Positions 1 through 24,120 are shown, counted from the first letter of the stretch. The stretch is DNA of 26,782 bases from Gemmatimonadota bacterium (GCA_046758745.1 JBHIAV010000040.1:1-26782), one strand, 5' to 3'. The notes: generated by a model not told the origin, from the sequence alone. A program made the numbers and translations.

Positions 1-54
<54 letters not shown>

Positions 55-826
55 CGATTTGTTACTCAGCGCCGCCATTGGGATCGCGACGCCGGGCATG
101 GTCATTTCTGCCATGCTCTGCATGTTGCCATGCAGTCCGGACTGTCTCATCCGCTATCGGGATTCAGCGGTCTGGCGTACAGTCTCTGAGGATTCTCGAA
201 CCGGGCCAGGATCTCCTCGTCCGCATACTTCCGCTTCCCACCGTCGTTCATGTCGCGGCGAATCTCCAGGATCTCTTCGATCCCTTCGTGTGTGAGATGC
301 CGCCTCTCCTTCATGATCTCCGCCAGCTTCACGAACTTCGCGAAGTCTCGCTTCTTCTTCGCCGATCGAAAGTTGAATCGCCTGAAGAAGGGAATGACGT
401 TCTGGAGGATGGTGTTCACGTTGTTAACCTCGTAATACCAGACTCCATCCCGTCGCTGACGCATGGTCCCACATTCCAAGTGTCGCTTGAAAAGCGACAG
501 AATGACCGGATCACGCTGGGAGATATTGAAGCAGAGAGAAACTTTCCATGGGAAACTGTAGTCGCTTCGTGGCCGAAAGCTCACGTTGAAGCTTCCTTCC
601 CCATCGGCGAAGCCGGCCAGATACCAGCCAATCTCCGCCGGGACTTGGTTGACCCTAGGCATTGCTCGAGCCTTTCCTGCTGATTGCCCGTCCACGTCGG
701 ATTTTCACTGCCACCCTCTTCGATCGCCTCAACACGAGGTCAACCCAGTGACGAGTACCGGCGCTTCATTCGGGTGTCCCAGCATATAGCCAGATTTGTT
801 AACGGAACTACAGTGGTCCTTAATCC
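55..826 (-). mobile_element. Group I self-splicing intron at 23S position L1917, 772 nt
   Basis: The 5' exon ends in U and the intron ends in G. Core elements: P TATGCTGGGACA (775-786), Q AATCAGCAGG (676-685), R TCAGAGACTGTA (178-189), S GAGACAGTCC (139-148). P3 is TCTGGC/GCCAGA and P7 is GACTGT/ACAGTC. IGS GTAGTT (806-811) pairs with exon AACTAT, giving a U.G pair at the splice site. P9 is CTGCATG-GCAA-CATGCAG. Confidence 0.96.
147..662 (-). CDS. Intron-encoded single-motif LAGLIDADG homing endonuclease (~171 aa)
   Basis: N-terminal motif WYLAGFADGEGSF, then NISQRD, IPFFRRFNFRSAKKKRDF and HLTHEGIEEIL. ATG at 662 is preceded by AGGAAAGG. The ORF track starts it at GTG 695. Confidence 0.95.
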   Translation of the reverse strand: MPRVNQVPAEIGWYLAGFADGEGSFNVSFRPRSDYSFPWKVSLCFNISQRDPVILSLFKRHLECGTMRQRRDGVWYYEVNNVNTILQNVIPFFRRFNFRSAKKKRDFAKFVKLAEIMKERRHLTHEGIEEILEIRRDMNDGGKRKYADEEILARFENPQRLYARPLNPDSG

Positions 827-857
<31 letters not shown>

Positions 858-1389
858 TTTCAAAGCTTCGCCCCCAGGAGCAAGCTCCCGGGAGCTGACC
901 TCTCCACTTAACCTTCCGGCACCGGGCAGGCGTCAGTGCCTATACGTCGTCTTGACGACTTCGCAGACACCTGTGTTTTTACTAAACAGTCGCTTGGGCC
1001 GATTCTCTGCGGCCCGCTTCGGCTCCACCGGCAAGCGGCTTCACCTACCACGGGCTCCCCTTCTCCCGAAGTTACGGGGACATTTTGCCGAGTTCCTTGA
1101 CCAAGACTCACTCGAGCGCCTGAGGCTTCTCGCCTCGCCCACCTGTGTCGGTTTGCGGTACGGTCGCCCGTCCATCTCGCCTGCGAAGCTTTTCTCGGCA
1201 GTTCTTACGGTCCCTTGGCGGGGTCCGAAGACCCCTTCGGCATCGGATCTCGGCTAAACGGGGGGATTTGCCTCCCCGAAAACGCCTACCTCCTTGCATC
1301 GAGCTCCACCGCCCGACGGACCTGCCATCCCTGCGTCCCTCCTCAGGCTCAAACGAAGAACGAGCGGTACGGGAATCTTCACCCGTTTC

Positions 1390-1421
<32 letters not shown>

Positions 1422-3013
1422 GGCCGACTGACCCTGAGCTGATCGACATGGCTCAGGAACCCTTGGGCTTTCGGCGACGGGGGTTCTCACCCCGTTTCTC
1501 GCGTACTCATTCCGGCATTCTCGCTTCCCTGCGCTCCACGGGCTGATGGCATATTCGCCAAGACCTCACGGCCCCGCTTCGCTGCACAGGCAACGCTCCC
1601 CTACCCCACGAAGGCTTCCGAAGAAGCCCCGCAGCCCTGGCTTCGGTGGCGGACTTGAGTCCCGACCATTATCGGCGCAAACCCGCTTGACTGGTGAGCT
1701 GTTACGCACTCTTTCAAGGAATGGCTGCTTCTAAGCCAACCTCCCAGTTGTCTGCGCAAGTTCACATCCTTTCTCACTTAGCCCGCACTTAGGGACCTTA
1801 GCCGGGGGTCTGGGTTCTTTCCCTCTCGCGCACGAACATTCTCGCCCGTGCCCTGCCTCCCTGAGACCGACTGACGGGCATTCGGAGTTTGGTTGGGGTT
1901 GGTACCCGGGTAAGGGCCCTAGCCCATCCAGTGCTCTACCTCCCGCAGTCTACGCTCAGAGGCGATACCGAAATATCTTTCGGGGAGAACCAGCTATCTC
2001 CAGGTTTGATTGGCCTTTCACCCCTATCCACAGCTCATCCGAGCGGTTTTCAACCCACAACGGTTCGGCCCTCCACGAGGCATTACCCCCGCTTCAGCCT
2101 GGCCATGGATAGATCACGCTGGTTTCGGGTCTTCGCCCGACCGACTCTGCGCCCTGTTAAGACTCGCTTTCGCTTCGGCTCCGCGGCTGAGCCGCTTAAC
2201 CTCGCCAGCCAGGTCGAACTCGCCGGATCATAATGCAAAAGGCACGCGGTCAGAGCGCCGTACCTCCGAAGAGGTACGGCCTCCTCCCACCGCTTGTAGG
2301 CACGAGGTTTCAGGTTCTCTTTCACCCGCCTCCCGGCGTGCTTTTCACCTTTCCCTCACGGTACTCGTTCGCTATCGGTCACAGGCTCGTATTTCGCCTT
2401 GGCAGATGGTCCTGCCGGCTTCAACCGGGATTCCTCGTGTCCCGGCCTACTCAGGAGGCCGTCCCGAACCCGCCGACCGGCTTTGCCTACGGGGCTTTCA
2501 CCCTCTTCGGCCGCGCTTTCCAGCGCTGTTCCGCTCCCCGATCGGCCAGGCCCGGAGGACCGGCAGATCCCCCCGGACGACCCCTGCAACCCCGCACGAG
2601 CAACGGCTGCCGCCTGTCACGCCCGCACGGTTTGGGCTCTTCCCCTTTCGCTCGCCGCTACTGAGGGAATCACTCTTGTTTCCTTTTCCTCGAGGTACTG
2701 AGATGTTTCAGTTCCCCCGGTTCGCCTCCCCGGGGCTATGTATTCCCCCCGGGGATGACCGGGTATGACCCCGGCCGGGTTCCCCCATTCGGACACCCGA
2801 GGATCAACGCTCGCTTGCAGCTCCCCCCGGCTTTTCGCAGCTTGCCACGTCCTTCATCGCCGGCCTGTGCCTAGGCATCCACCTCGCGCCCTTCCTTGCT
2901 TGATCCACCTATCCTTCGGAGGCCCGCACCGGGCTAACGCCCGACACGACCCCCCACGTCAGACGCCTCGGCGCCCTCTCGGCACTCACCTTCACACCCT
3001 CTCTCACTCCTGC

Positions 3014-3045
3014 TTGTCAAAAAGCTACCCGCCTCTTGCGAGACG
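3014..3045 (-). promoter_or_regulatory. rRNA antitermination boxB hairpin and boxA
   Basis: Minus strand has a GTCTC-GCAA-GAGGC GNRA hairpin followed by AGCTTTTTGACAA, close to boxA consensus TGCTCTTTAACA. Confidence 0.7.
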
Positions 3046-3052
3046 ACCTGCA

Positions 3053-3081
3053 AACCTAACCGGCGAGCCTTATGCCGTCAA
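3053..3081 (-). promoter_or_regulatory. Sigma70-type promoter for the 23S gene
   Basis: -35 TTGACG (3081-3076), 17-nt spacer, -10 TAGGTT (3058-3053), directly upstream of boxB/boxA. Confidence 0.75.
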
Positions 3082-3148
3082 CGACCGGGGAGGGCTCTCA
3101 GGCAGCATTCCCCGGTGGTGCGGTGCCGGAGCACGCCCGGGCCGGAGC

Positions 3149-3769
3149 TCAGAAGGCGACGCCGAAGCCGATCGCCTCGTTCTCGCCCACCGTGACGCCC
3201 ATACGGAGCTTGAACCGCTCCGCGAACTGAGCATCCATCCCGAGGTCCACGTCGAAATGGAGATCCTCATCATCAAAGTCCGCGAAGAGGATGTCGAGCG
3301 CCAACCTCGGGTAGAGGTAGGGAGTGAGCATCACCTCGCTGTTCTCCACCTTCAGCTCGCGCCCGAGCGATACCCCGCCCGGGATTCGCACGATCCCGAA
3401 GTCGCGATCGCGCGGGCCGGCATCGGGCACGAACCCGATCCCGAACCCCGTTACCCAGGCAACGTCGAGCGGGAAGGACTCGTCGGCGGCGACGAGCTCG
3501 TTCTTCAGATCCACCCCGCCGAACAGGCCCACCTCGCCGAACGCGTCCACCAGGCCGCCGCGGAGCCCGAGGTCGACCACATCGCCCGACTGGCGCCAGG
3601 TCAGGATCCCGGCGACGTCGTCGGCGTCGTTCTGAAACAGCAGGTAGAGCCCCAACCCATCCTCCCCGTACGGCGTATTGAAGGAGGGAGTGTCGAACGT
3701 CTGCGCCCGGAGGGCACTCGCTCCGACGAGAAGGGCGGAGGCGACCAGCCAGCCGGCGCCACAGCGCAT
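3149..3769 (-). CDS. Hypothetical exported protein, probable small outer-membrane beta-barrel
   Basis: Signal-peptide-like start MRCGAGWLVASALLVGASALRA-Q, alternating hydrophobic beta-strand pattern, C-terminal IGFGVAF ending in Phe. RBS GAGGGAG precedes ATG 3769. Confidence 0.7.
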   Translation of the reverse strand: MRCGAGWLVASALLVGASALRAQTFDTPSFNTPYGEDGLGLYLLFQNDADDVAGILTWRQSGDVVDLGLRGGLVDAFGEVGLFGGVDLKNELVAADESFPLDVAWVTGFGIGFVPDAGPRDRDFGIVRIPGGVSLGRELKVENSEVMLTPYLYPRLALDILFADFDDEDLHFDVDLGMDAQFAERFKLRMGVTVGENEAIGFGVAF

Positions 3770-3797
3770 ACGCGATCGCTCCCTCACAGGGGCTCCA

Positions 3798-6389
<2,592 letters not shown>

Positions 6390-6465
6390 TAGCGCGCTCC
6401 TTCACCCACCATTCCATCTCCGTCGCCGGCTGGCCGCTCTTCCTCCGGCCTCACTCTCTCCGGCC

Positions 6466-8073
6466 TCACGCCCGGGCGGCGGTCGCGGGCTCCGCTCGGT
6501 TCGCCCGGAAGAGCTGCTTGTGGGCCTCGATCGCCTCGCGCAGCTGCGACTCGATCTCCTTCGTAAGCACCTTCCCCATCCGAATGCCGGCCCCGATATC
6601 GGCATGCGCCGAGCGCATGTAGTCGAGGAAGCTCCTTTCCCAGCGCGGGACGTGGCGAACCTCCACGTCGTCCAGGAAGCCCTGCGTGACGGCGAAGATG
6701 ACCATGATCTGCTCCTCCACCGGCATCGGCTTGTACTGACCCTGCTTGAGGACCTCCACCGTGCGCCGTCCCCGAGCGAGCTGGCGCTGCGTGGCGGGAT
6801 CCAGGTCGGAGCCGAACTGGGCGAACGCCTCCAGCTCCCGGAACTGGGCGAGATCGAGGCGGAGGCGTCCCGCCACGCGCTTCATCGCCGTGATCTGGGC
6901 GTTCCCGCCCACGCGTGACACCGAGATCCCGGCGTTCACGGCCGGCTTTACGCCCGCGTAGAAGAGGTCGCTCTCGAGGTAGATTTGGCCGTCCGTGATG
7001 GAGATCACGTTCGTCGGTATGTAGGCGGAGACGTCTCCCGCCTGCGTCTGGATGATGGGGAGAGCGGTGAGCGAGCCGCCGGGCTTCCGGATCTCGGCGT
7101 GATCCCGAAGGATCTCCGCGTCCTCGGTGATCTTGGCCGCGCGCTCGAGCAGCCTGCTGTGCAGGTAGAAGATGTCGCCCGGGTACGCCTCCCGGCCCGG
7201 CGGCCGGCGCAGCACGAGCGAGATCTCCCGGTACGCGTCCGCCTGCTTGGAGAGATCGTCGTAGACGCAAAGCGTGTGACGGCCCTCCTCGTACACGAAA
7301 TACTCGGCCAACGCGCAGCCGGCGTACGGGGCGATGTACTGGAGGGTCGCGGGGTCGGAGGCGTTGGCGCTCACCACGATCGTGTGGTCCATCGCGCCTT
7401 CTTGCTCGAGCCGGTCGACCACCGACGCCACGGTGGATGCCTTCTGCCCGATCGCCACGTACACGCAGACGACGTCGCCACCGCGCTGGTTGATGATCGT
7501 GTCGAGGGCGATGGCGGTCTTCCCCGTCCGGCGGTCCCCGATGATGAGCTCTCGTTGGCCGCGCCCGATCGGGATCATGGAGTCGATCGCCTTGAGCCCC
7601 GTCTGGAGGGGCTCCTTGACGGGCTGGCGGAAGACGATTCCCGGTGCCTTGCGGTCCACCTTCATCGCGCCTGTCGTCTCGATCGGCCCCTTCCCATCGC
7701 GCGGCTCGCCGAGGGGGCTGACCACGCGGCCAAGGAAGCCGGGGCCCGCCGGGACCTCCAGGACGCGCTCCGTACGACGAACGGCATCCCCTTCCTTGAG
7801 CTGCAGGTAATCGCCGAGGATCACCGCCCCGATGTTGTCCTCTTCCAGGTTCAGGGCGAGGGCGATGATCGTGTTCCCGGTCTCGGAGGACTCGATCGCG
7901 AGCATCTCGTTCGCCATGGCGGAGGAGAGTCCCCAGATGCGGGCCACGCCGTCCTTCACCTCCAGGACCTCGCCCACCTCTTCGAGGCGCAGCTCCTCCT
8001 CGTATCGGTCGATCTGCTCGATCAGCGCCTTCTTTATCTCGCTGGCGCGCAGCGTCGCGTCTGTCCTGGCCAT
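6466..8073 (-). CDS. atpA: ATP synthase F1 alpha subunit
   Basis: Motifs [44 protein letters not shown] 8073 is the likely start. Confidence 0.99.
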
Positions 8074-8170
8074 GCTAGCGTTCACCCTCAGACTTCTACG
8101 GTTTCCGACACCCGGTCGGCCGAGCGGCGGATCTGACGAGCACCCGGCTGGTGGAGCCGCGCCCTTCCGA

Positions 8171-8734
8171 TCACCCGGCCTGCGGAGTGTGATCTCCCTC
8201 CTCGATCAGGACGCGGCGGAGATCGTGGAGCCGCCGCCGCAGGGAGCCGTCCATCAGGCGGTCCTCCACTCGGACGACGACCCCGCCCAGGATTGCCTCG
8301 TCCCGTCGGAACGTCGGGATGACCTCCCGCCCGAGGAAGCGCTCGAGGGCCGCTCGAATCTCCTTACGTAGCTCGGCGTCGGGCTCTCTCGCCAGGGTCA
8401 CCACGGCGCGCACTCGTCCCGCCCGCTCGTCGAGGAGCTCTCGATAAGCTTCCTCGATCTCGGGGAGGAGCGACAGCCGGCCCTTCTCCAGGGCGACGAG
8501 GAGGAAGCGCAGGAATAGGAGGGGGTAGCGATCGGAGAAGACCTCCCGGAGGGCGGAGCGCTTCTCCGTGAGCGAGATGCGCGGCGTTTCCACCAAGCGC
8601 CGGAAGTCCGGCTCCTCCCTGTGGAGCGCGGCCACCTCTCCGAGCCACTCTCCATACGCCTCGATCGCACCTTCCCGCGACCCGAGCTCGAGGAGCGTTT
8701 CCGCGTAGTTTCTCCCGATCGAGGCCCGGCTCAT
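8171..8734 (-). CDS. atpH: ATP synthase delta subunit
   Basis: N-terminal RNYAETL, C-terminal [22 protein letters not shown], and operon position. Confidence 0.95.
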
Positions 8735-9336
8735 CGAAGCTCCGCCACGTACTCCTGAACGAGACGGCGGCTCGCCTCGTCGTCCACCCGCTGGCGAATC
8801 AATCGTTCGGCTGCGGCCAGGGAGATCTCCACCGCCTCCCGGCGCACGGACTGCATCAGCTCGTCCCGCTCGCGGGAGAGTTCTCGCCGGGCCCGATCGA
8901 GAAGCTCCGCGTGCTCAGCCCGCGCTCGCGCCAGGATCTCCTCGCGCAGCTTGTCTCCGGCGACCCGGCTCTCCCGCAGGATTCCCTGCGCTTCGCGCCT
9001 CGCCTCGGCCAGCTGACGCGCGTGCTCGTCGAGCAGCCGACGCGCTTCTTCCCGGTCCTGCCGAGCCGCGTCTATCGCCTCCTGGATCTTCCGCTGACGC
9101 TGCTCCAGGCCGCCCGCGATCGCCGGGAAGACCTTCCAGGCGAGGATGGCCAGGGTGAGGAGGAATAGGACCCAGGTCCAGATGACCAGACCCAGGTTGA
9201 GCGAGAAGATCTGCGAGCCCCCCTCCTGGGCCGCGGCCACGGCCGCCGGCGTCCCGAGGAGGAGCCCCGCGCAGAGCGCGGCGCGAATCCCGCCGCTCGC
9301 TCGACTCCCGCCACGCACTTGAGTCCCGCCGCTCAC
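8731..9336 (-). CDS. atpF: ATP synthase Fo subunit b, with N-terminal extension
   Basis: TM segment GLVIWTWVLFLLTLAILAWKVFP followed by a long charged coiled coil; operon position. Confidence 0.93.
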   Translation of the reverse strand: MSGGTQVRGGSRASGGIRAALCAGLLLGTPAAVAAAQEGGSQIFSLNLGLVIWTWVLFLLTLAILAWKVFPAIAGGLEQRQRKIQEAIDAARQDREEARRLLDEHARQLAEARREAQGILRESRVAGDKLREEILARARAEHAELLDRARRELSRERDELMQSVRREAVEISLAAAERLIRQRVDDEASRRLVQEYVAELR

Positions 9337-9581
9337 TTGATGAAGGCGGCGATCACGAGCCCGAAGAGCGCGACGCCCTCGATCAGCGCCGCCAGGATGA
9401 TCGCGGCGGTCTGGATCTGTGGGCCCGATTCGGGCTGTCTGGCCATCGCGTCGGCCATCTGTCCGCCGATCCTGCCGATTCCGAGACCGGCGCCGATCAC
9501 CGCACCGAGAACCGCGAGACCGGCCCCGACGTCACCGATCCCGACGGCGGTTTCCTGAAGCATCAAGAGCAGATTCGGCAT
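9333..9581 (-). CDS. atpE: ATP synthase Fo subunit c
   Basis: GAGLGIG, ARQPE loop, ALIEGVALF with the conserved Glu. Start is ATG 9581 or TTG 9584. Confidence 0.97.
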   Translation of the reverse strand: MPNLLLMLQETAVGIGDVGAGLAVLGAVIGAGLGIGRIGGQMADAMARQPESGPQIQTAAIILAALIEGVALFGLVIAAFIK

Positions 9582-9657
9582 CAACGCCTCCCCTTCGGTT
9601 TCAGTATGGCGCGTACGGACAGAGCGTCACGCCGTGGCAGACGACGGAACGACGGCC

Positions 9658-10593
9658 TCAGTGGGCATGGCGGACGAGCCCGATGAACACGGCCGTCAGG
9701 ATGGTGAAGATGTACGCCTGCAGGAGCGCGATGAAGATCTCCATGAGCATGACGAACAGGCCGAGCAGGATCGGCCCGACGATCGCCGTGAGCCCCACCG
9801 CTGCCCTGAAGCTCCCGTACGTGATGATCAGCCCCAGGAAGGAGAGCAGCACCAGGTGGCCCGCAGTCATGTTGGCGAAAAGTCGGACGGCGAGCGCGAA
9901 CGGTTTGGCCAGCTTCCCGATCAACTCGACGGGGGTCATGATCACCAACATCACGGCGCCCATCACCGGGTTCAGGCCGGGAGGCACGTAGAAGATCGTG
10001 CGCAGGTAACCCCTGGGCCCGAGCGACACGAAGCCGGCCGTCTCCACGGCGAACAGCGAAATGACGGCGAGCGCGCCGGTGACCATGATGTTGGAGGTCG
10101 CCGTCGAACCGAACGGCACGAGGCCGAGGAGGTTCGCGTACATGATGAAGAAGAAGAGGGTGATGACGTACGGGACGAAGCGCTCTCCTCCGTGGCCGAT
10201 GTTGGCCATCGCTACCTCGTCCCGCAGGTATAGGTAGAGTGCCTCCACCGCGTTCAGCAACCCGCGGGGGGCCCGCTCCCCCTGCTCGAGCCGCTGCGCC
10301 TGCCGCGCGGCGAGCCACATCGTGAGCACCGTGAGCAGGGCCGCGATGCCAAGGAAGACAACGTGCTTTGTCACCGAGAGGTCGATGGTGAGCGGCCCCA
10401 CGTGGAGCGGGGGCACGCCGAGCGGCGCGAGGTCGATCTCCTTCGCGCCGAACTCGAGAACGCGGGAGTCCGTGACGTGGTGGAGCATCGTCTCCCTGCC
10501 CCACTCCTGGGCGTGCTCGGCCCCCGCCGCCAGCCCGTCGGGCGGGACCCCGTTCTCCTGCAGGAGCGTCGCCAGGATGCCCCTCAGCGTCAT
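9658..10593 (-). CDS. atpB: ATP synthase Fo subunit a
   Basis: Motifs KPFALAVRLFANMTAGH and LQAYIFTILT. Confidence 0.98.
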   Translation of the reverse strand: MTLRGILATLLQENGVPPDGLAAGAEHAQEWGRETMLHHVTDSRVLEFGAKEIDLAPLGVPPLHVGPLTIDLSVTKHVVFLGIAALLTVLTMWLAARQAQRLEQGERAPRGLLNAVEALYLYLRDEVAMANIGHGGERFVPYVITLFFFIMYANLLGLVPFGSTATSNIMVTGALAVISLFAVETAGFVSLGPRGYLRTIFYVPPGLNPVMGAVMLVIMTPVELIGKLAKPFALAVRLFANMTAGHLVLLSFLGLIITYGSFRAAVGLTAIVGPILLGLFVMLMEIFIALLQAYIFTILTAVFIGLVRHAH

Positions 10594-10627
10594 ATCGAGA
10601 CCAAACCCGTCATCCCCCCGGCTTCCT

Positions 10628-19469: not shown

Positions 19470-21079
19470 GCCAGCACCCCCGCCAGGGTGGCCGTCATCC
19501 ACGTCGCGGTGGTGCCGCCCAACATGGCTCGCAGGCCGAGGCGGGAGAGATCGTGGCGCCGCTCCGGTGCGATGCCCCCGATCCCCCCGATCTGAATCGC
19601 GATGGAGGAGAAGTTGGCGAAGCCCGTCAGGGCGTATGTCGTCATCACGACGGACTTCGGGGAGAGCTGCGTCCCGGTCGCCAGGTCGGTCGCCAGGCTC
19701 TGGAACGCCACGAACTCGTTCGCCACCATCTTCATGCCGAACAGGCTCCCCACGTGGACCGCATCGGCCCACGGGATCCCCAGGATCCAGGCCACCGGTG
19801 CGAACAGCCAGCCGAAGATCGTCTCCAGAGTCACACCCTCGACGCCGAAGAGGCCGAGGAGCCAGCCGAGGAGCCCGTTTCCGAGCGCGATGAGGGCAAG
19901 GAAGGCGAGAAGCATGGCGCCGACGTTGAGCGCCAGGCGGAGGCCGTCCGCCGCGCCGCCCGCCGCCGCGTCGATCACGTTCACGTAGGGCTGCTCCAGC
20001 TCGAGCCGCAGGCTCCCCCTGGTCTTCGGCTCCTCGGTCTCGGGGAAGAGCATCTTGCTCACCACGATCCCCGCGGGCGCCGCCATGATGCTGGCGGCCA
20101 GCAGATGGCCGGCGATGGTCGGGAAGAAGGTGTAAAGCATCCCCACATAGGCGGCCATCACGCCCCCGGCCACGGTGGCGAACCCCCCGGTCATCACCGT
20201 GTTCAGCTCCGAGTCCGTCATGGTGGCGACGAACGGCTTGATGAGCAGGGGCGCCTCCGTCTGCCCGACGAAAATGTTGCCGGCGGCCGAGACCGTCTCC
20301 GCCCCGCTGGTGCGCAGGCTCTTCTGCATCAGCCACGCCACGCCCCGCACGACCCGCTGCATGATCCCCAGGTAGTAGAGGAGCGTCATCAACGCGGAGA
20401 AGAAGATGATCGTCGTCAGGACGCTGAACGCGAAGTGGGCGTTGAGGTGGACGCTCCCCCCACCACCGCCCGTTACCGGGACGGTTGGATCGACCAGACC
20501 GCCGAAGAGAAAAGCGGCGCCGCTGTTCGTGTATCCGATGAGGGCTATGAAGACGTCGTTCACCACTCGGAAGAACCCCTGTCCCCAGGTGCTCTTGAGG
20601 ACGAGGATAGCGAAGAGGAGCTGCAGGAGGAGTCCCTTCGCGACGAGCGACCAGTCAATGGATCGGCGTCGCGCCGAGAAGATCCACAGCACGACCAGGA
20701 TGCTCGACATGCCGAGAAGGCCGCGCAGCACGCGGTTCCACAGGGGGATGTCGATCTTCTGGGAGATCAGCGTCCCGCCCCCCTCGTTCGCCCCCTGCGG
20801 CCCGGTTATCCCGGCACGCAACTGGGCGCCCATCCGACGGCCGATGGGCGGTCGCGCCGAGGCGAGCCGTCCCGCCGGATCCTCACGCGCCTCGCCTCCC
20901 TGTTCGGCGGGAGGCTCGGCCGCGGCTGCCGCCGGTGGGAGGACCGGCTCCGGGGGGGCTCCGAAGCCGGTCGGCGGCCCGTCTGCCGCGAAAGCCGTCC
21001 GACAGGTGCAGCCGAGCAGGAACATCACGGCGACCAGCCGCCCCGCTCTCCGCCCGCCCGACCCGCGCACTTCGACCAT
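19466..21079 (-). CDS. nupC: NupC/CNT-family nucleoside transporter with long N-terminal extension
   Basis: [42 protein letters not shown] 21079 follows AAGGAG. Confidence 0.92.
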
Positions 21080-21135
21080 CGCCCGCTCCTTTTCGCCCGG
21101 TCGAGCCCGGCGCCGCTCGCCGCAGCGCCGGCCGG

Positions 21136-21894
21136 CTACCACCAGCCGCGGCCGATATCGTCCCGCGTCAGCTTCCGTCTTCCCCGCTTCGCCGCGACGA
21201 GAAGGCGCCGCGCGAAGGGCTTCACCAGAACCACCCCGGCCAGGAAACCGCCGACGTGAGCCCAGAACGCCACGCCGCCCCCCATCGAGCCGCCGGCCGC
21301 GCCCATGAAAAGCTGAAGCACGAACCAGTATCCGAGGAGAACGAAGGCGGGCAGCGCGAAGACGCGCACGAAGATAACGAAGATCACGAGCGTGTAAACG
21401 CGGACACGCGGGTAGAGGATCAGGTACGCCCCCATCACGCCGCTGATCGCGCCCGACGCGCCGACCGTCGGAACGCCGCTTCCGGGCACGGAGAGGATGT
21501 GGGCACCGGCCGCGATGAGACCGGCCAGAAGGTAGAAGAGCAGGAATCGGAAGTGCCCCATCGAGTCCTCGATGTTGTTCCCGAACACCCACAGGAACCA
21601 CATGTTGCCGATCAGGTGCCCCCACCCGCCGTGCAGGAACATCGAGGTGATGAGGGTTCCCTCCACGAGCCCGCCCGTGCGACAGCGCACCGGGCCGAGA
21701 GAGACCCACTCGCCCGGCGAGAGCACACCCGTGATCTCTCCGGGGATCGTGCCGTACGCGCACAGCGACTGCAGGAAGGGCCCGCTCGCGCCCGCGCCCT
21801 GGACGAAGAGCCACACCGCGACGTTGGCGGCTATGAGGGCAACCGTGAAGAGAGGAACCAGCTCGGTGGGGTTCTCATCGCGGAGCGGGAACAT
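21136..21894 (-). CDS. Rhomboid intramembrane serine protease
   Basis: [22 protein letters not shown] (catalytic Ser), AHVGGF (catalytic His). Confidence 0.94.
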
Positions 21895-21940
21895 GCGCGC
21901 AGGTTAGATGGGGCGCGGAACGCGCGCAATCGCGCTCGGC

Positions 21941-22014
21941 GGGAGGCCATCCTTCCCGGGCGCGCTCCCGGCAGGGAGGCCATCCTTGCCCGGGCGCGCT
22001 CCCGGCAGGGAGGC
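21941..22014. repeat. Tandem direct repeat, 33/34-bp unit x2 plus a partial copy
   Basis: GGGAGGCCATCCTT(G)CCCGGGCGCGCTCCCGGCA at 21941-21973 and 21974-22007, then GGGAGGC. Confidence 0.9.
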
Positions 22015-22089
22015 GCTGCCACTCTGACACGAAAAGCTCCCGGCGGTGCCAGAATGTCGGGAAATCCGGGCCCAGGAAGGGACGGACCC

Positions 22090-22105
22090 GGGCATATGGC
22101 TTGCA
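22090..22105 (+). promoter_or_regulatory. Candidate sigma54 (-24/-12) promoter of dnaK
   Basis: GGGCAT-ATGGC-TTGCA versus consensus TGGCAC-N5-TTGCA, with GG-N10-GC spacing intact. Confidence 0.6.
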
Positions 22106-22191
22106 CCCTCCCCGAGGCGGCTCCGCCCCCCACGGCCCGCGGGCCGGTGTGGGAGCGGCCTTCAGACAACGCACTTTACGGGGAACTCAGC

Positions 22192-24120
22192 ATGGGCAAG
22201 GTCATCGGAATCGATCTCGGCACGACCAACTCGGTGGTCGCGGTCATGGAGGGCGGAGACCCGGTGGTCATCGCGAACGCGGAGGGCGCCCGCACCACGC
22301 CGTCCGTGGTGGCGTACACCAAGGACGGCGAACGCCTGGTCGGCCAGGTCGCCAAGCGGCAGGCGGTCACCAACCCCCTCAACACGATCTTCTCCATCAA
22401 GCGCTTCATGGGCCGCAAGTCGGCCGAGGTGGACAGCGAGAGGAAGCTCGTGCCCTACAAGGTCGAGGCCGACTCGCAGCAGCGTGTCACCGTGAACGTC
22501 CCCAACGCTGGCAAGACCTTCACGCCCCCCGAGATCTCGGCGATGATCCTCCAGAAGATGAAGCAGACGGCGGAGGACTATCTCGGCCAGGAGGTCACCC
22601 AGGCGGTCATCACGGTCCCCGCCTACTTCAACGATGCCCAGCGGCAGGCCACGAAGGACGCGGGAAGGATCGCCGGCCTCGAGGTCCTTCGGATCATCAA
22701 CGAGCCGACGGCCGCCTCGCTGGCCTACGGGCTGGACAAGAAACAGGATGAGAAGATCGCCGTCTTCGACCTGGGGGGCGGCACGTACGACATCTCGATC
22801 CTCGAGCTCGGCGATGGCGTCTTCGAGGTGAAGGCCACCAACGGCGACACGCACCTCGGCGGCGACGACCTCGACCAGCGGATCATCGACTGGCTGGTCG
22901 CGGAGTTCAAGAAGGACCAGGGCATCGATCTCTCGAAGGACCCGATGGCGCTGCAGCGTCTCAAGGAGGCAGCCGAGAAGGCGAAGTGCGAGCTGTCGAG
23001 CACCATGCAGACGGACATCAACCTGCCCTTCATCACGGCGGACCAGTCCGGCCCGAAGCATCTGAACATCACCCTTACCCGAGCGAAGTTCGAGCAGCTG
23101 GTGGACGACCTGATCGAGCGGACGAAAGCACCGATGCAGCAGGCGCTCGAGGACGCGGGGGTCGAGGCATCCGCTATCGATGAGGTGATCCTCGTCGGCG
23201 GATCCACCCGCATCCCCAAGATCCAGGAGACGGTGCGTGCGTTCTTCGGGAAGGAGCCCCACAAGGGGGTCAATCCGGACGAGGTGGTGGGGATCGGTGC
23301 GGCGATCCAGGGCGGCGTCCTGGCGGGGGATGTGAAGGACGTCCTCCTGCTCGACGTGACCCCGCTCTCCCTGGGCATCGAGACGCTGGGCGGGGTGATG
23401 ACGAGGCTGATCGAGCGAAACACCACCATCCCGACGAAGAAGAGCGAGATCTTCTCGACGGCCGAAGACAATCAGAGCACCGTGGACATCCACGTGCTCC
23501 AGGGCGAGCGACCGATGGCGGCCGACAACAAGACCATCGGCCGCTTCCAGCTCACCGGAATCCCGCCGGCGCCGCGCGGAGTGCCGCAGATCGAGGTGAC
23601 GTTCGACATCGACGCCAACGGGATCCTGCACGTCAGCGCGAAGGACCGAGCTACCGGCAAGGAGCAGAAGATCCGCATCGAGGCCTCCTCCGGACTCTCC
23701 GAGGCCGAGATCGAGCGGATGGTCAAGGAGGCGGAGGAGCACGCGAGCGAGGACAAGGACCGTCGCGAGGCCGTCGAGGCGCGGAACCGGCTCGACTCGC
23801 TAATCTATCAGACGGAAAAGAACCTGGAGGACTGGAAGGAATCGATCGACGAGGCGTCCAAGAGCCAGGTGGAAACGGCGCTCGAGCGTGGTCGGAAGGC
23901 CCTGAAGGAGGGCCAAATCGGCGAAATCCGTGCCGCGACCGACGCCATCAACCAGGCCGTGCAGGCCGCCGCTCAGCAAATCTACGCGAAGGCGGGAGCG
24001 GCCCAGGCGGGGGGGGAGGAAGCTGCTTCGGGTGGCCCCGAAGAAGCCGCCCCCGGGACGGCAGCGGAAGAGGAGGAGGTCGTCGAGGCCGACTACGAGA
24101 TCGTGGAAGACAAAGAGTAG
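22192..24120 (+). CDS. dnaK: Chaperone DnaK (Hsp70)
   Basis: [40 protein letters not shown]-terminal VVEADYEIV. The true start is ATG 22192 within the longer track ORF. Confidence 0.99.

Follow-up and report, generated by a model that had tools for sequence, protein, structure and literature searches.

Introduction

In the textbook view, group I introns of bacterial rRNA genes are rare outside a few thermophiles, intracellular pathogens and CPR bacteria. Among the described systems, those closest to the locus analysed here interrupt 23S rRNA at position 1917 (L1917). Haugen 2007 lists L1917 introns carrying LAGLIDADG homing endonuclease (HE) genes in Synechococcus sp. C9 (743 nt, with a 181-aa HE) and, in Table 1, in Thermotoga subterranea (774 nt, with a 168-aa HE), and describes a layout in which the ORF runs from P6 through P7, P3 and P8, P2 is absent and P5 is complex (PMC1995217). 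The same authors considered that a larger sample of introns and endonucleases would be needed to resolve horizontal transfer (Haugen et al.; PMC1995217). A second study finds that LAGLIDADG_1 genes occur across the CPR bacteria at position 1917 of the 23S gene and at sites nearby, treats 23S introns of this kind as much rarer outside CPR, and demonstrates both target cleavage and dimerisation for I-ShaI, a related enzyme of the neighbouring site 23IS7 (PMC11270868).

The locus examined here lies in the window, the whole 26,782-nt stretch of DNA that was analysed, which constitutes contig C40 of a 130-contig MAG (estimated as 87.4% complete and 0.08% contaminated) from what is probably an uncultured Gemmatimonadota bacterium. 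On the evidence of its sequence, conservation and genomic setting, this chromosomal 23S gene quite probably harbours a mobile element, namely a group I intron belonging to the L1917 LAGLIDADG family. Like the introns of Synechococcus C9 and T. subterranea, of which the latter had already been named as a precedent in the sequence-only reading and is borne out by Table 1 of that source, the window element sits at L1917, is of comparable size (772 nt, 171 aa) and has one LAGLIDADG motif (Haugen 2007; PMC1995217). Its ORF likewise starts in P6 and crosses P7, P3 and P8 of a P2-less ribozyme with a complex P5, and the architecture matches the published L1917 type, a likeness that rests on the published description; however, the host phylum differs, and the ORF stops at a UGA in J8/7, as against P9 in that description (PMC1995217). 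With the CPR introns it shares a single-domain LAGLIDADG_1 gene within a group I intron at 1917, whereas its host is not a CPR bacterium (PMC11270868). A further counterpart, Cbu.L1917 of Coxiella burnetii, is reportedly also a group I intron at L1917 of a bacterial 23S gene; Table 1 of Haugen 2007, however, places the Coxiella endonuclease gene in the L1951 intron and not at L1917, where the window carries its own (PMC1995217). Unlike Coxiella with its Cbu.L1951, the window has no L1951 intron, its exon continuing uninterrupted to about position 1970. The element thus belongs to an intron family known from other bacteria and is not new in kind. The 23S group I introns of Coxiella burnetii were reportedly treated by Raghavan et al. 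2007. A literature search, with most subscription journals outside its coverage, found no report of 23S group I introns in Gemmatimonadota, Nitrospirota or Acidobacteriota, and the Gemmatimonadota are, as far as searched, a new host lineage in print, though not in databases.

Insertion site and boundaries

The minus strand of window bases 1-2905 carries a 23S rRNA gene from its 5' end through two-thirds of its length (Rfam LSU_rRNA_bacteria, model positions 1-1997 of 2925, 1546 bits). On that strand a 772-nt insertion (826..55) splits the gene within the helix 69 loop, a well-known hotspot, directly after U1917 by E. coli numbering. The 5' exon (827..2905, gene start to U1917) terminates in ...GGCGGCCGTAACTAT at 827, with the U at 827 as its last base, and the 3' exon resumes with AACGGTCC... 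at 54; read further out, the 5' side ends ...GGCGGCCGUAACUAU at 827 and the 3' side begins AACGGUCCUAAGGUAGCG... from 54. The final intron base is a G at position 55 (omega-G), which among related loci is G in 72 of 78 and A in 6. The 3' exon fragment (1..54, minus strand, A1918 to about 1970) matches the letters of intronless relatives and runs to the contig end, 54 nt past the intron, so that the assembly lacks the remainder of the 23S gene. The MAG yielded only this one, incomplete 23S copy and no further fragment of it; absent with the 3' third are any additional introns there and the 5S. The intron itself may explain the break in the rRNA assembly.

The U and omega-G boundaries, the P1 wobble, P10, the catalytic core and the unbroken ORF that the sequence-only reading had listed were all recovered where it placed them, on the minus strand. 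As a separate observation, the six L1917 introns that end in A instead of omega-G, before AACGG (L029, L045, L056, L061, L062 and L080), include five that belong to MAGs of Bipolaricaulota or Fraserbacteria and group together in the endonuclease tree. One Coxiella 23S intron is likewise reported to lack the canonical omega-G.

Ribozyme fold and covariation

Helices were placed on the window by eye and by script and then scored on an alignment of 78 sequences, comprising the window, the ORF-less copy of a related genome (G029) and 76 ORF-bearing copies from other genomes. Standard pairs occupy 92.9% of the 6271 pair cells, compared with 35-41% in a control in which the 3' partners were slid by 1-3 columns; 56 of 86 pairs have changed on both sides, and 0 of 500 shuffles match any of the observed measures.

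P1 (806..832) is formed by exon AACUAU and intron GG (832-825) with CUGUAGUU (813-806), is 98.9% paired with covariation at two inner pairs, and includes the internal guide sequence GUAGUU (811-806); its splice-site pair is U·G in all 78 sequences. The 5' strand of P10 (AGGACC, 815..820) faces GGUCCU of the 3' exon (51-46) with 84.3% of cells paired, its changes being one-sided and lacking covariation because the exon is invariant. Only 11 nt separate P1 from P3, leaving P2 absent, and the P5 region is extended. The 5' strand of P3 (UCUGGC, 789..794) finds its partner GCCAGA (176-171) across the ORF, with 98.9% pairing and two-sided change in 5 of 6 pairs. Within the P4-P5 domain (678..784), P4 (784-779/683-678) and P5 (774-771/690-687) are 100% paired, P5a (764-758/700-694) is 80% and P5b (756-748/714-707) 93% paired, compensatory changes occur, and there is a variable distal arm. 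The loop holding the endonuclease gene is closed by P6 (677-675/192-190), which is invariant, and P6a (670-665/200-195), which is 94% paired and covaries at 6 of 6 pairs (together 190..677). P4 and P6 hardly vary and are therefore uninformative on covariation; P3 and P6a, which span the 516-nt ORF, both covary. P7 (184-179/145-140; 96% paired, two covarying pairs) encloses P3' (176-171) and P8 (170-166/155-151; 95% paired, 5 of 5 covarying) in the region of the R and S elements (140..184). Toward the 3' end (56..135) lie P9 (135-129/124-118; 98.9% paired), P9.1 (116-111/101-96; 84%) and P9.2 (94-86/75-67; 79% and 67% in two segments), all with compensatory changes, followed by a conserved tail, GAGUAACA... 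All of these elements lie on the minus strand.

That tail is an observation in its own right. At 56-66 (GAGUAACAAAU before omega-G), GAGUAACA is nearly invariant in the family and repeats the exon GUAAC found just before the 5' splice site, and the Rfam LSU model aligns it as helix 69; no covarying partner for it was found.

A search with the Rfam covariance model, which the sequence-only reading had proposed as a check, gave a divided answer. For Intron_gpI (RF00028) the whole window yielded no match at the gathering threshold (12.5 bits, E 2.4 in E-value mode), and only the P7-P3'-P8-P7'-P9 half aligned well, with high posterior there; the low score arises because the 516-nt ORF in P6 splits the model. 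The ORF-less homologue of G029 (L004, 285 nt) scored 64.2 bits on the same model (gathering 50, E 7e-15). A group II intron and an RNase III-type intervening sequence were considered and dismissed, the core helices and G-binding P7 being those of group I. From structure and conservation, the identification of the insertion as a group I intron with a P3/P7 pseudoknot core is well supported.

It has also to be asked whether such an insertion is spliced. An unspliced 23S group I intron has reportedly been found in Chlamydiales, and this precedent gives some footing to a reading in which the insertion is retained in mature rRNA or is cut by host RNases, leaving a fragmented 23S in the manner of an intervening sequence. 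However, P1, P10, P7, omega-G and the core helices are maintained by compensatory change, for which only ribozyme activity offers an explanation, and the insertion occupies the loop of helix 69, where an extra 772 nt would disrupt bridge B2a. A non-splicing insertion is accordingly scarcely credible, and the element is better regarded as a probable self-splicing intron, although the earlier statement that splicing is obligatory is reduced by the same precedent to an inference.

The endonuclease gene

The ORF (147..662, minus strand) encodes 171 aa from an ATG at 662-660 to a UGA at 149-147 in J8/7 and is unbroken. It starts in the P6 loop and continues through P6', P7, P3' and P8, so that its last 17 codons (155-171, positions 200-150) double as P6a', P6', J6/7, P7, P3' and P8; the ATG at 662 coincides with the start codon of most aligned homologues. 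The product matches Pfam LAGLIDADG_1 (PF00961) with 63 bits against a cut-off of 23.1 (E 5.4e-17), and no NCBIfam family was found for it. Together with the junctions and the covariation across the 78 sequences, this match bears out the original reading: a group I intron occupies L1917, and its LAGLIDADG gene is intact.

The motif LAGFADGEG (594..620, minus strand), aligned with the motifs of I-SmaMI, includes a predicted catalytic residue, Glu22 (codon 599-597), which aligns with the acidic residues E and D of the two I-SmaMI domain motifs. The best matches in the PDB are enzymes of the I-SmaMI/I-OnuI type (E 5e-35), which are of fungal mitochondrial origin. Each half of these meganucleases (PDB 5e5o, 4lox and others) aligns with the whole window protein, motif included, and the single-motif chains 5gkk and 3e54 are also among the solved-structure matches. 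Between them, the Pfam and PDB matches place the fold securely. Whereas I-SmaMI and I-OnuI are two-domain monomers, the window protein has one domain and is predicted to need dimerisation; single-motif LAGLIDADG enzymes act as homodimers, and the window protein should do likewise. The two-fold symmetry of the target site reaches at most 5 of 11 positions for any centre near 1917, which is unhelpful for a homodimer, yet not contradictory, and says little either way.

Relative to the copy in G002, a genome of a sister genus, codons 1-153 give a dN/dS of 0.114 at a dS of 0.74, by which measure the endonuclease ORF is under purifying selection. In the overlap with the ribozyme core dS falls to 0.19, on few sites, a decrease that fits an added RNA constraint. 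By core covariation, the catalytic Glu and the dN/dS of 0.11, the features needed for splicing and homing are conserved.

Host genome, synteny and assembly

Upstream of the 23S gene and on the same strand lies an F1Fo ATP synthase operon (atpB, F, A, G, D) and, after it, further genes of housekeeping function; neither a 16S gene nor a tRNA was found upstream of the 23S in window 2906-10600. A single contig also joins atpD to the 23S gene in G002 (with an ORF-bearing intron), in G029 (with an ORF-less one) and in the intronless G082, and the 23S gene is therefore unlinked from 16S in this bacterial family. Elsewhere in the window, a match to Pfam NAD-GH (PF10712) at 22162-23742 on the minus strand lies opposite the dnaK gene (20935-24120, plus strand); NAD-GH is presumably an antisense artefact of Hsp70 genes.

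Support for the junctions from sequencing, the lack of which had been named as a ground for refutation, came from two DNA runs of one hydrothermal vent metagenome study, which may be source samples. Compared as contigs rather than raw reads, each run contains an 830-nt contig identical to window 26-855, without differences and with both junctions spanned. These contigs extend only 29 nt into each exon, the exon flanks are common to many organisms in the same runs with summed depths of hundreds to thousands, and the MAG contig ends 54 nt past the intron; it is thus conceivable that an intron-bearing rRNA piece of another community member was joined to this genome through conserved flanks during assembly or binning. 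Several results speak against such an artefact. The closest intron (85% identical) and the closest endonuclease both reside in G002, which belongs to the same family and shows the atp-23S synteny within a single contig; the intron contig has a depth of about 10-11, comparable with the depth of about 6-15 for lineage-specific 23S pieces in runs X1 and X2, albeit a weak measure; and the contamination estimate of the MAG is 0.08%. A chimeric join through conserved flanks is unlikely, and an assembly or binning origin of the locus as a whole appears very improbable.

Intronless joints (53->826) also occur in the DNA runs at a depth of 40-143. These were rejected as an intronless allele of the host genome, as their sides consist of 25-30 nt of universally conserved sequence and most likely derive from other organisms. 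The one RNA run compared, from seawater (X5), covered only the conserved exons; nothing in it pointed to the host, and the run is silent on splicing. In the vent runs X1-X3, contigs with 32 other letters in place of ORF region 192-669 were observed at a depth of about 12; ORF-less relatives of the intron therefore coexist in the vent community.

Relatives within the family

The exon just upstream of 1917 is present in 41 of the 114 genomes of the bacterial family to which the window belongs. Thirty family loci were read, and an L1917 intron is present in three of them (the window, G002 and G029), an L1923 intron in one and L1931 introns in two, these last three loci being unbroken at 1917. The remaining 24 are uninterrupted at 1917 with the same exon letters, as far as each locus reaches, four being readable for only 17-36 nt before the contig end. 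A match of 36 nt was recorded in G022 (E 5.3e-4). The earlier description of a patchy distribution agrees with the three occupied loci out of 30.

The G002 intron is the closest known to us in this survey, with 85% identity to the window over 727 nt, and G029, which represents another genus of the family, carries an L1917 copy in which a short hairpin stands at the position of the ORF. The L1923 intron of G014, six bases downstream, has a ribozyme 70-76% identical to that of the window over two segments and a 175-aa LAGLIDADG ORF with one motif, which likewise extends into the core. We take the L1923 intron and endonuclease type to be that of I-CeuI, from which the window differs in insertion site and guide sequence. 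Further introns were observed among relatives in the same 35-nt stretch of 23S: G014 (L005) has its L1923 intron at 1281-1966 and an L1951 insertion after 2007; in G002 (L010, 1621-1932) an ORF-less L1931 intron, and in G029 (L004, below 656) an L1931 intron, directly follow the L1917 intron; and G115 and G132 (L103, L104) carry L1931 introns.

Base composition and residence

The sequence-only reading had noted that the intron is lower in GC than the host genes and had taken this to suggest horizontal acquisition. The difference itself stands, as the intron has 55.2% GC against 61.9% in the 23S exons, with 69.2% in the rest of the contig. The inference drawn from it is weak, given that third codon positions of the ORF are host-like at 71.5% GC and that intron GC tracks host exon GC across 71 loci (r = 0.75). 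The pattern speaks for an element that has resided long or has passed between hosts alike in composition, and not for a recent low-GC donor.

Another possibility is that the element is a relic in the sense of a splicing, vertically inherited intron with an endonuclease that no longer homes, being inactive or retained for another function such as help in splicing. The host-like third positions accord with this, as does the sister relationship of the window and G002 copies at a syntenic locus, and the ORF-less derivative in G029 shows a gene lost and an intron kept. However, the dN/dS of 0.114 indicates a protein kept by selection, although a non-nuclease role would give the same value; the catalytic Glu is retained; and an old and purely vertical intron found at only 3 of 30 family loci would require many losses. 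We regard a resident relic as unlikely but deserving of some weight, and the homing intron as the preferred reading.

Distribution across phyla

In a protein database the endonuclease has 3861 relatives at E <= 1e-3, of which the best 120 are 74-84% identical and stem mostly from short metagenome contigs. A collection with one genome per species contained 193 stretches encoding a relative, at 65-84% protein identity. Among the best 80 of these 193 loci, all 80 have an open frame of at least 155 aa and 78 have both exon motifs, with the insertion exactly at L1917, the other two running off their contigs; several lie on megabase contigs or complete chromosomes. By the labels of the database records, the best 80 of 193 cover about 20 named phyla, including Acidobacteriota (19), Nitrospirota (10), Chloroflexota (7), Gemmatimonadota (6, labelled Gemmatimonadota or Longimicrobiales), Pseudomonadota (5) and Bipolaricaulota (5). 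At database level, the suggestion that this might be the first such element in its lineage is therefore not tenable: besides the 85% identical copy in G002 and the ORF-less copy in G029, there are the six Gemmatimonadota loci and about 20 phyla within the best 80 of 193.

A quick IQ-TREE phylogeny of the endonucleases, from which L073 of the 80 loci was omitted after being missed by the motif filter, places the window enzyme as sister to the G002 copy (SH-aLRT 87). Phylum labels change 30 times on the tree, against a minimum of 19 and a shuffled mean of 50.8, which suggests vertical runs with some mixing between phyla; starred branches demand multiple origins in some phyla only, and part of the apparent mixing could stem from mis-binned rRNA contigs. 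The backbone is weak, with 36 of 77 inner branches under 80, and recent mobility into the host lineage is therefore not demonstrated.

Two loci in this set stand out. In L067, a 2-kb contig of a MAG titled Syntrophus aciditrophicus, the endonuclease is nested among Chloroflexota copies, possibly as a mis-binned rRNA contig rather than a transfer. In L028, from a Betaproteobacteria MAG, the 5' exon motif runs straight into about codon 9 of the endonuclease around position 998; the whole 5' half of the ribozyme is therefore absent, and the copy has either decayed or been misassembled.

A model for splicing and homing

The comparisons permit a model of how the element may operate, in which the steps of splicing, translation and dimerisation, as well as the site of cleavage and any mobility today, are all inferred. 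The intron would be transcribed within pre-23S rRNA, and the guide GUAGUU would pair with the exon end AACUAU to form P1, with the U·G pair at the splice site. Free guanosine bound in P7 would then attack after U1917, and P10 (AGGACC/GGUCCU) together with omega-G (55) would set up exon ligation, by which helix 69 would be restored. The ATG at 662, within the P6 loop, would start translation of the 171-aa protein, which as a single-motif LAGLIDADG enzyme would form a homodimer. This enzyme may cut intronless 23S rDNA around 1917, whereupon repair from an intron-bearing copy would spread intron and gene together in the process of homing.

Implications

For the host, the sole assembled 23S gene would need splicing to yield a working helix 69. 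The element also shows clearly how protein and ribozyme constraint can act together on a single stretch of sequence, and the family to which it belongs provides a rich natural collection of single-motif LAGLIDADG enzymes directed at a single conserved 23S position. The survey, in which relatives come from 193 species genomes, 78 of the best 80 loci are occupied at L1917 and several lie on complete chromosomes, points against rarity of such introns in bacterial rRNA. It further supplies the larger sample of introns and endonucleases called for by Haugen et al. (PMC1995217).

The most interesting by-product is the breadth of one intron-endonuclease family over uncultured bacterial phyla. We give about even chances to a broader proposal, namely that the L1917 intron with its dual-coded endonuclease constitutes an under-recognised pan-bacterial homing element, present in at least 193 species-level genomes of about 20 phyla, mostly uncultured and non-CPR, with 65-84% protein identity and with phyla mixed in the tree. 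The ribozyme core from P6' to P8 serves as the last 17 codons of the protein, with the UGA of J8/7 as its stop codon. If the proposal is true, 23S group I introns would be no rarity in bacteria and would continue to pass from one distant lineage to another.
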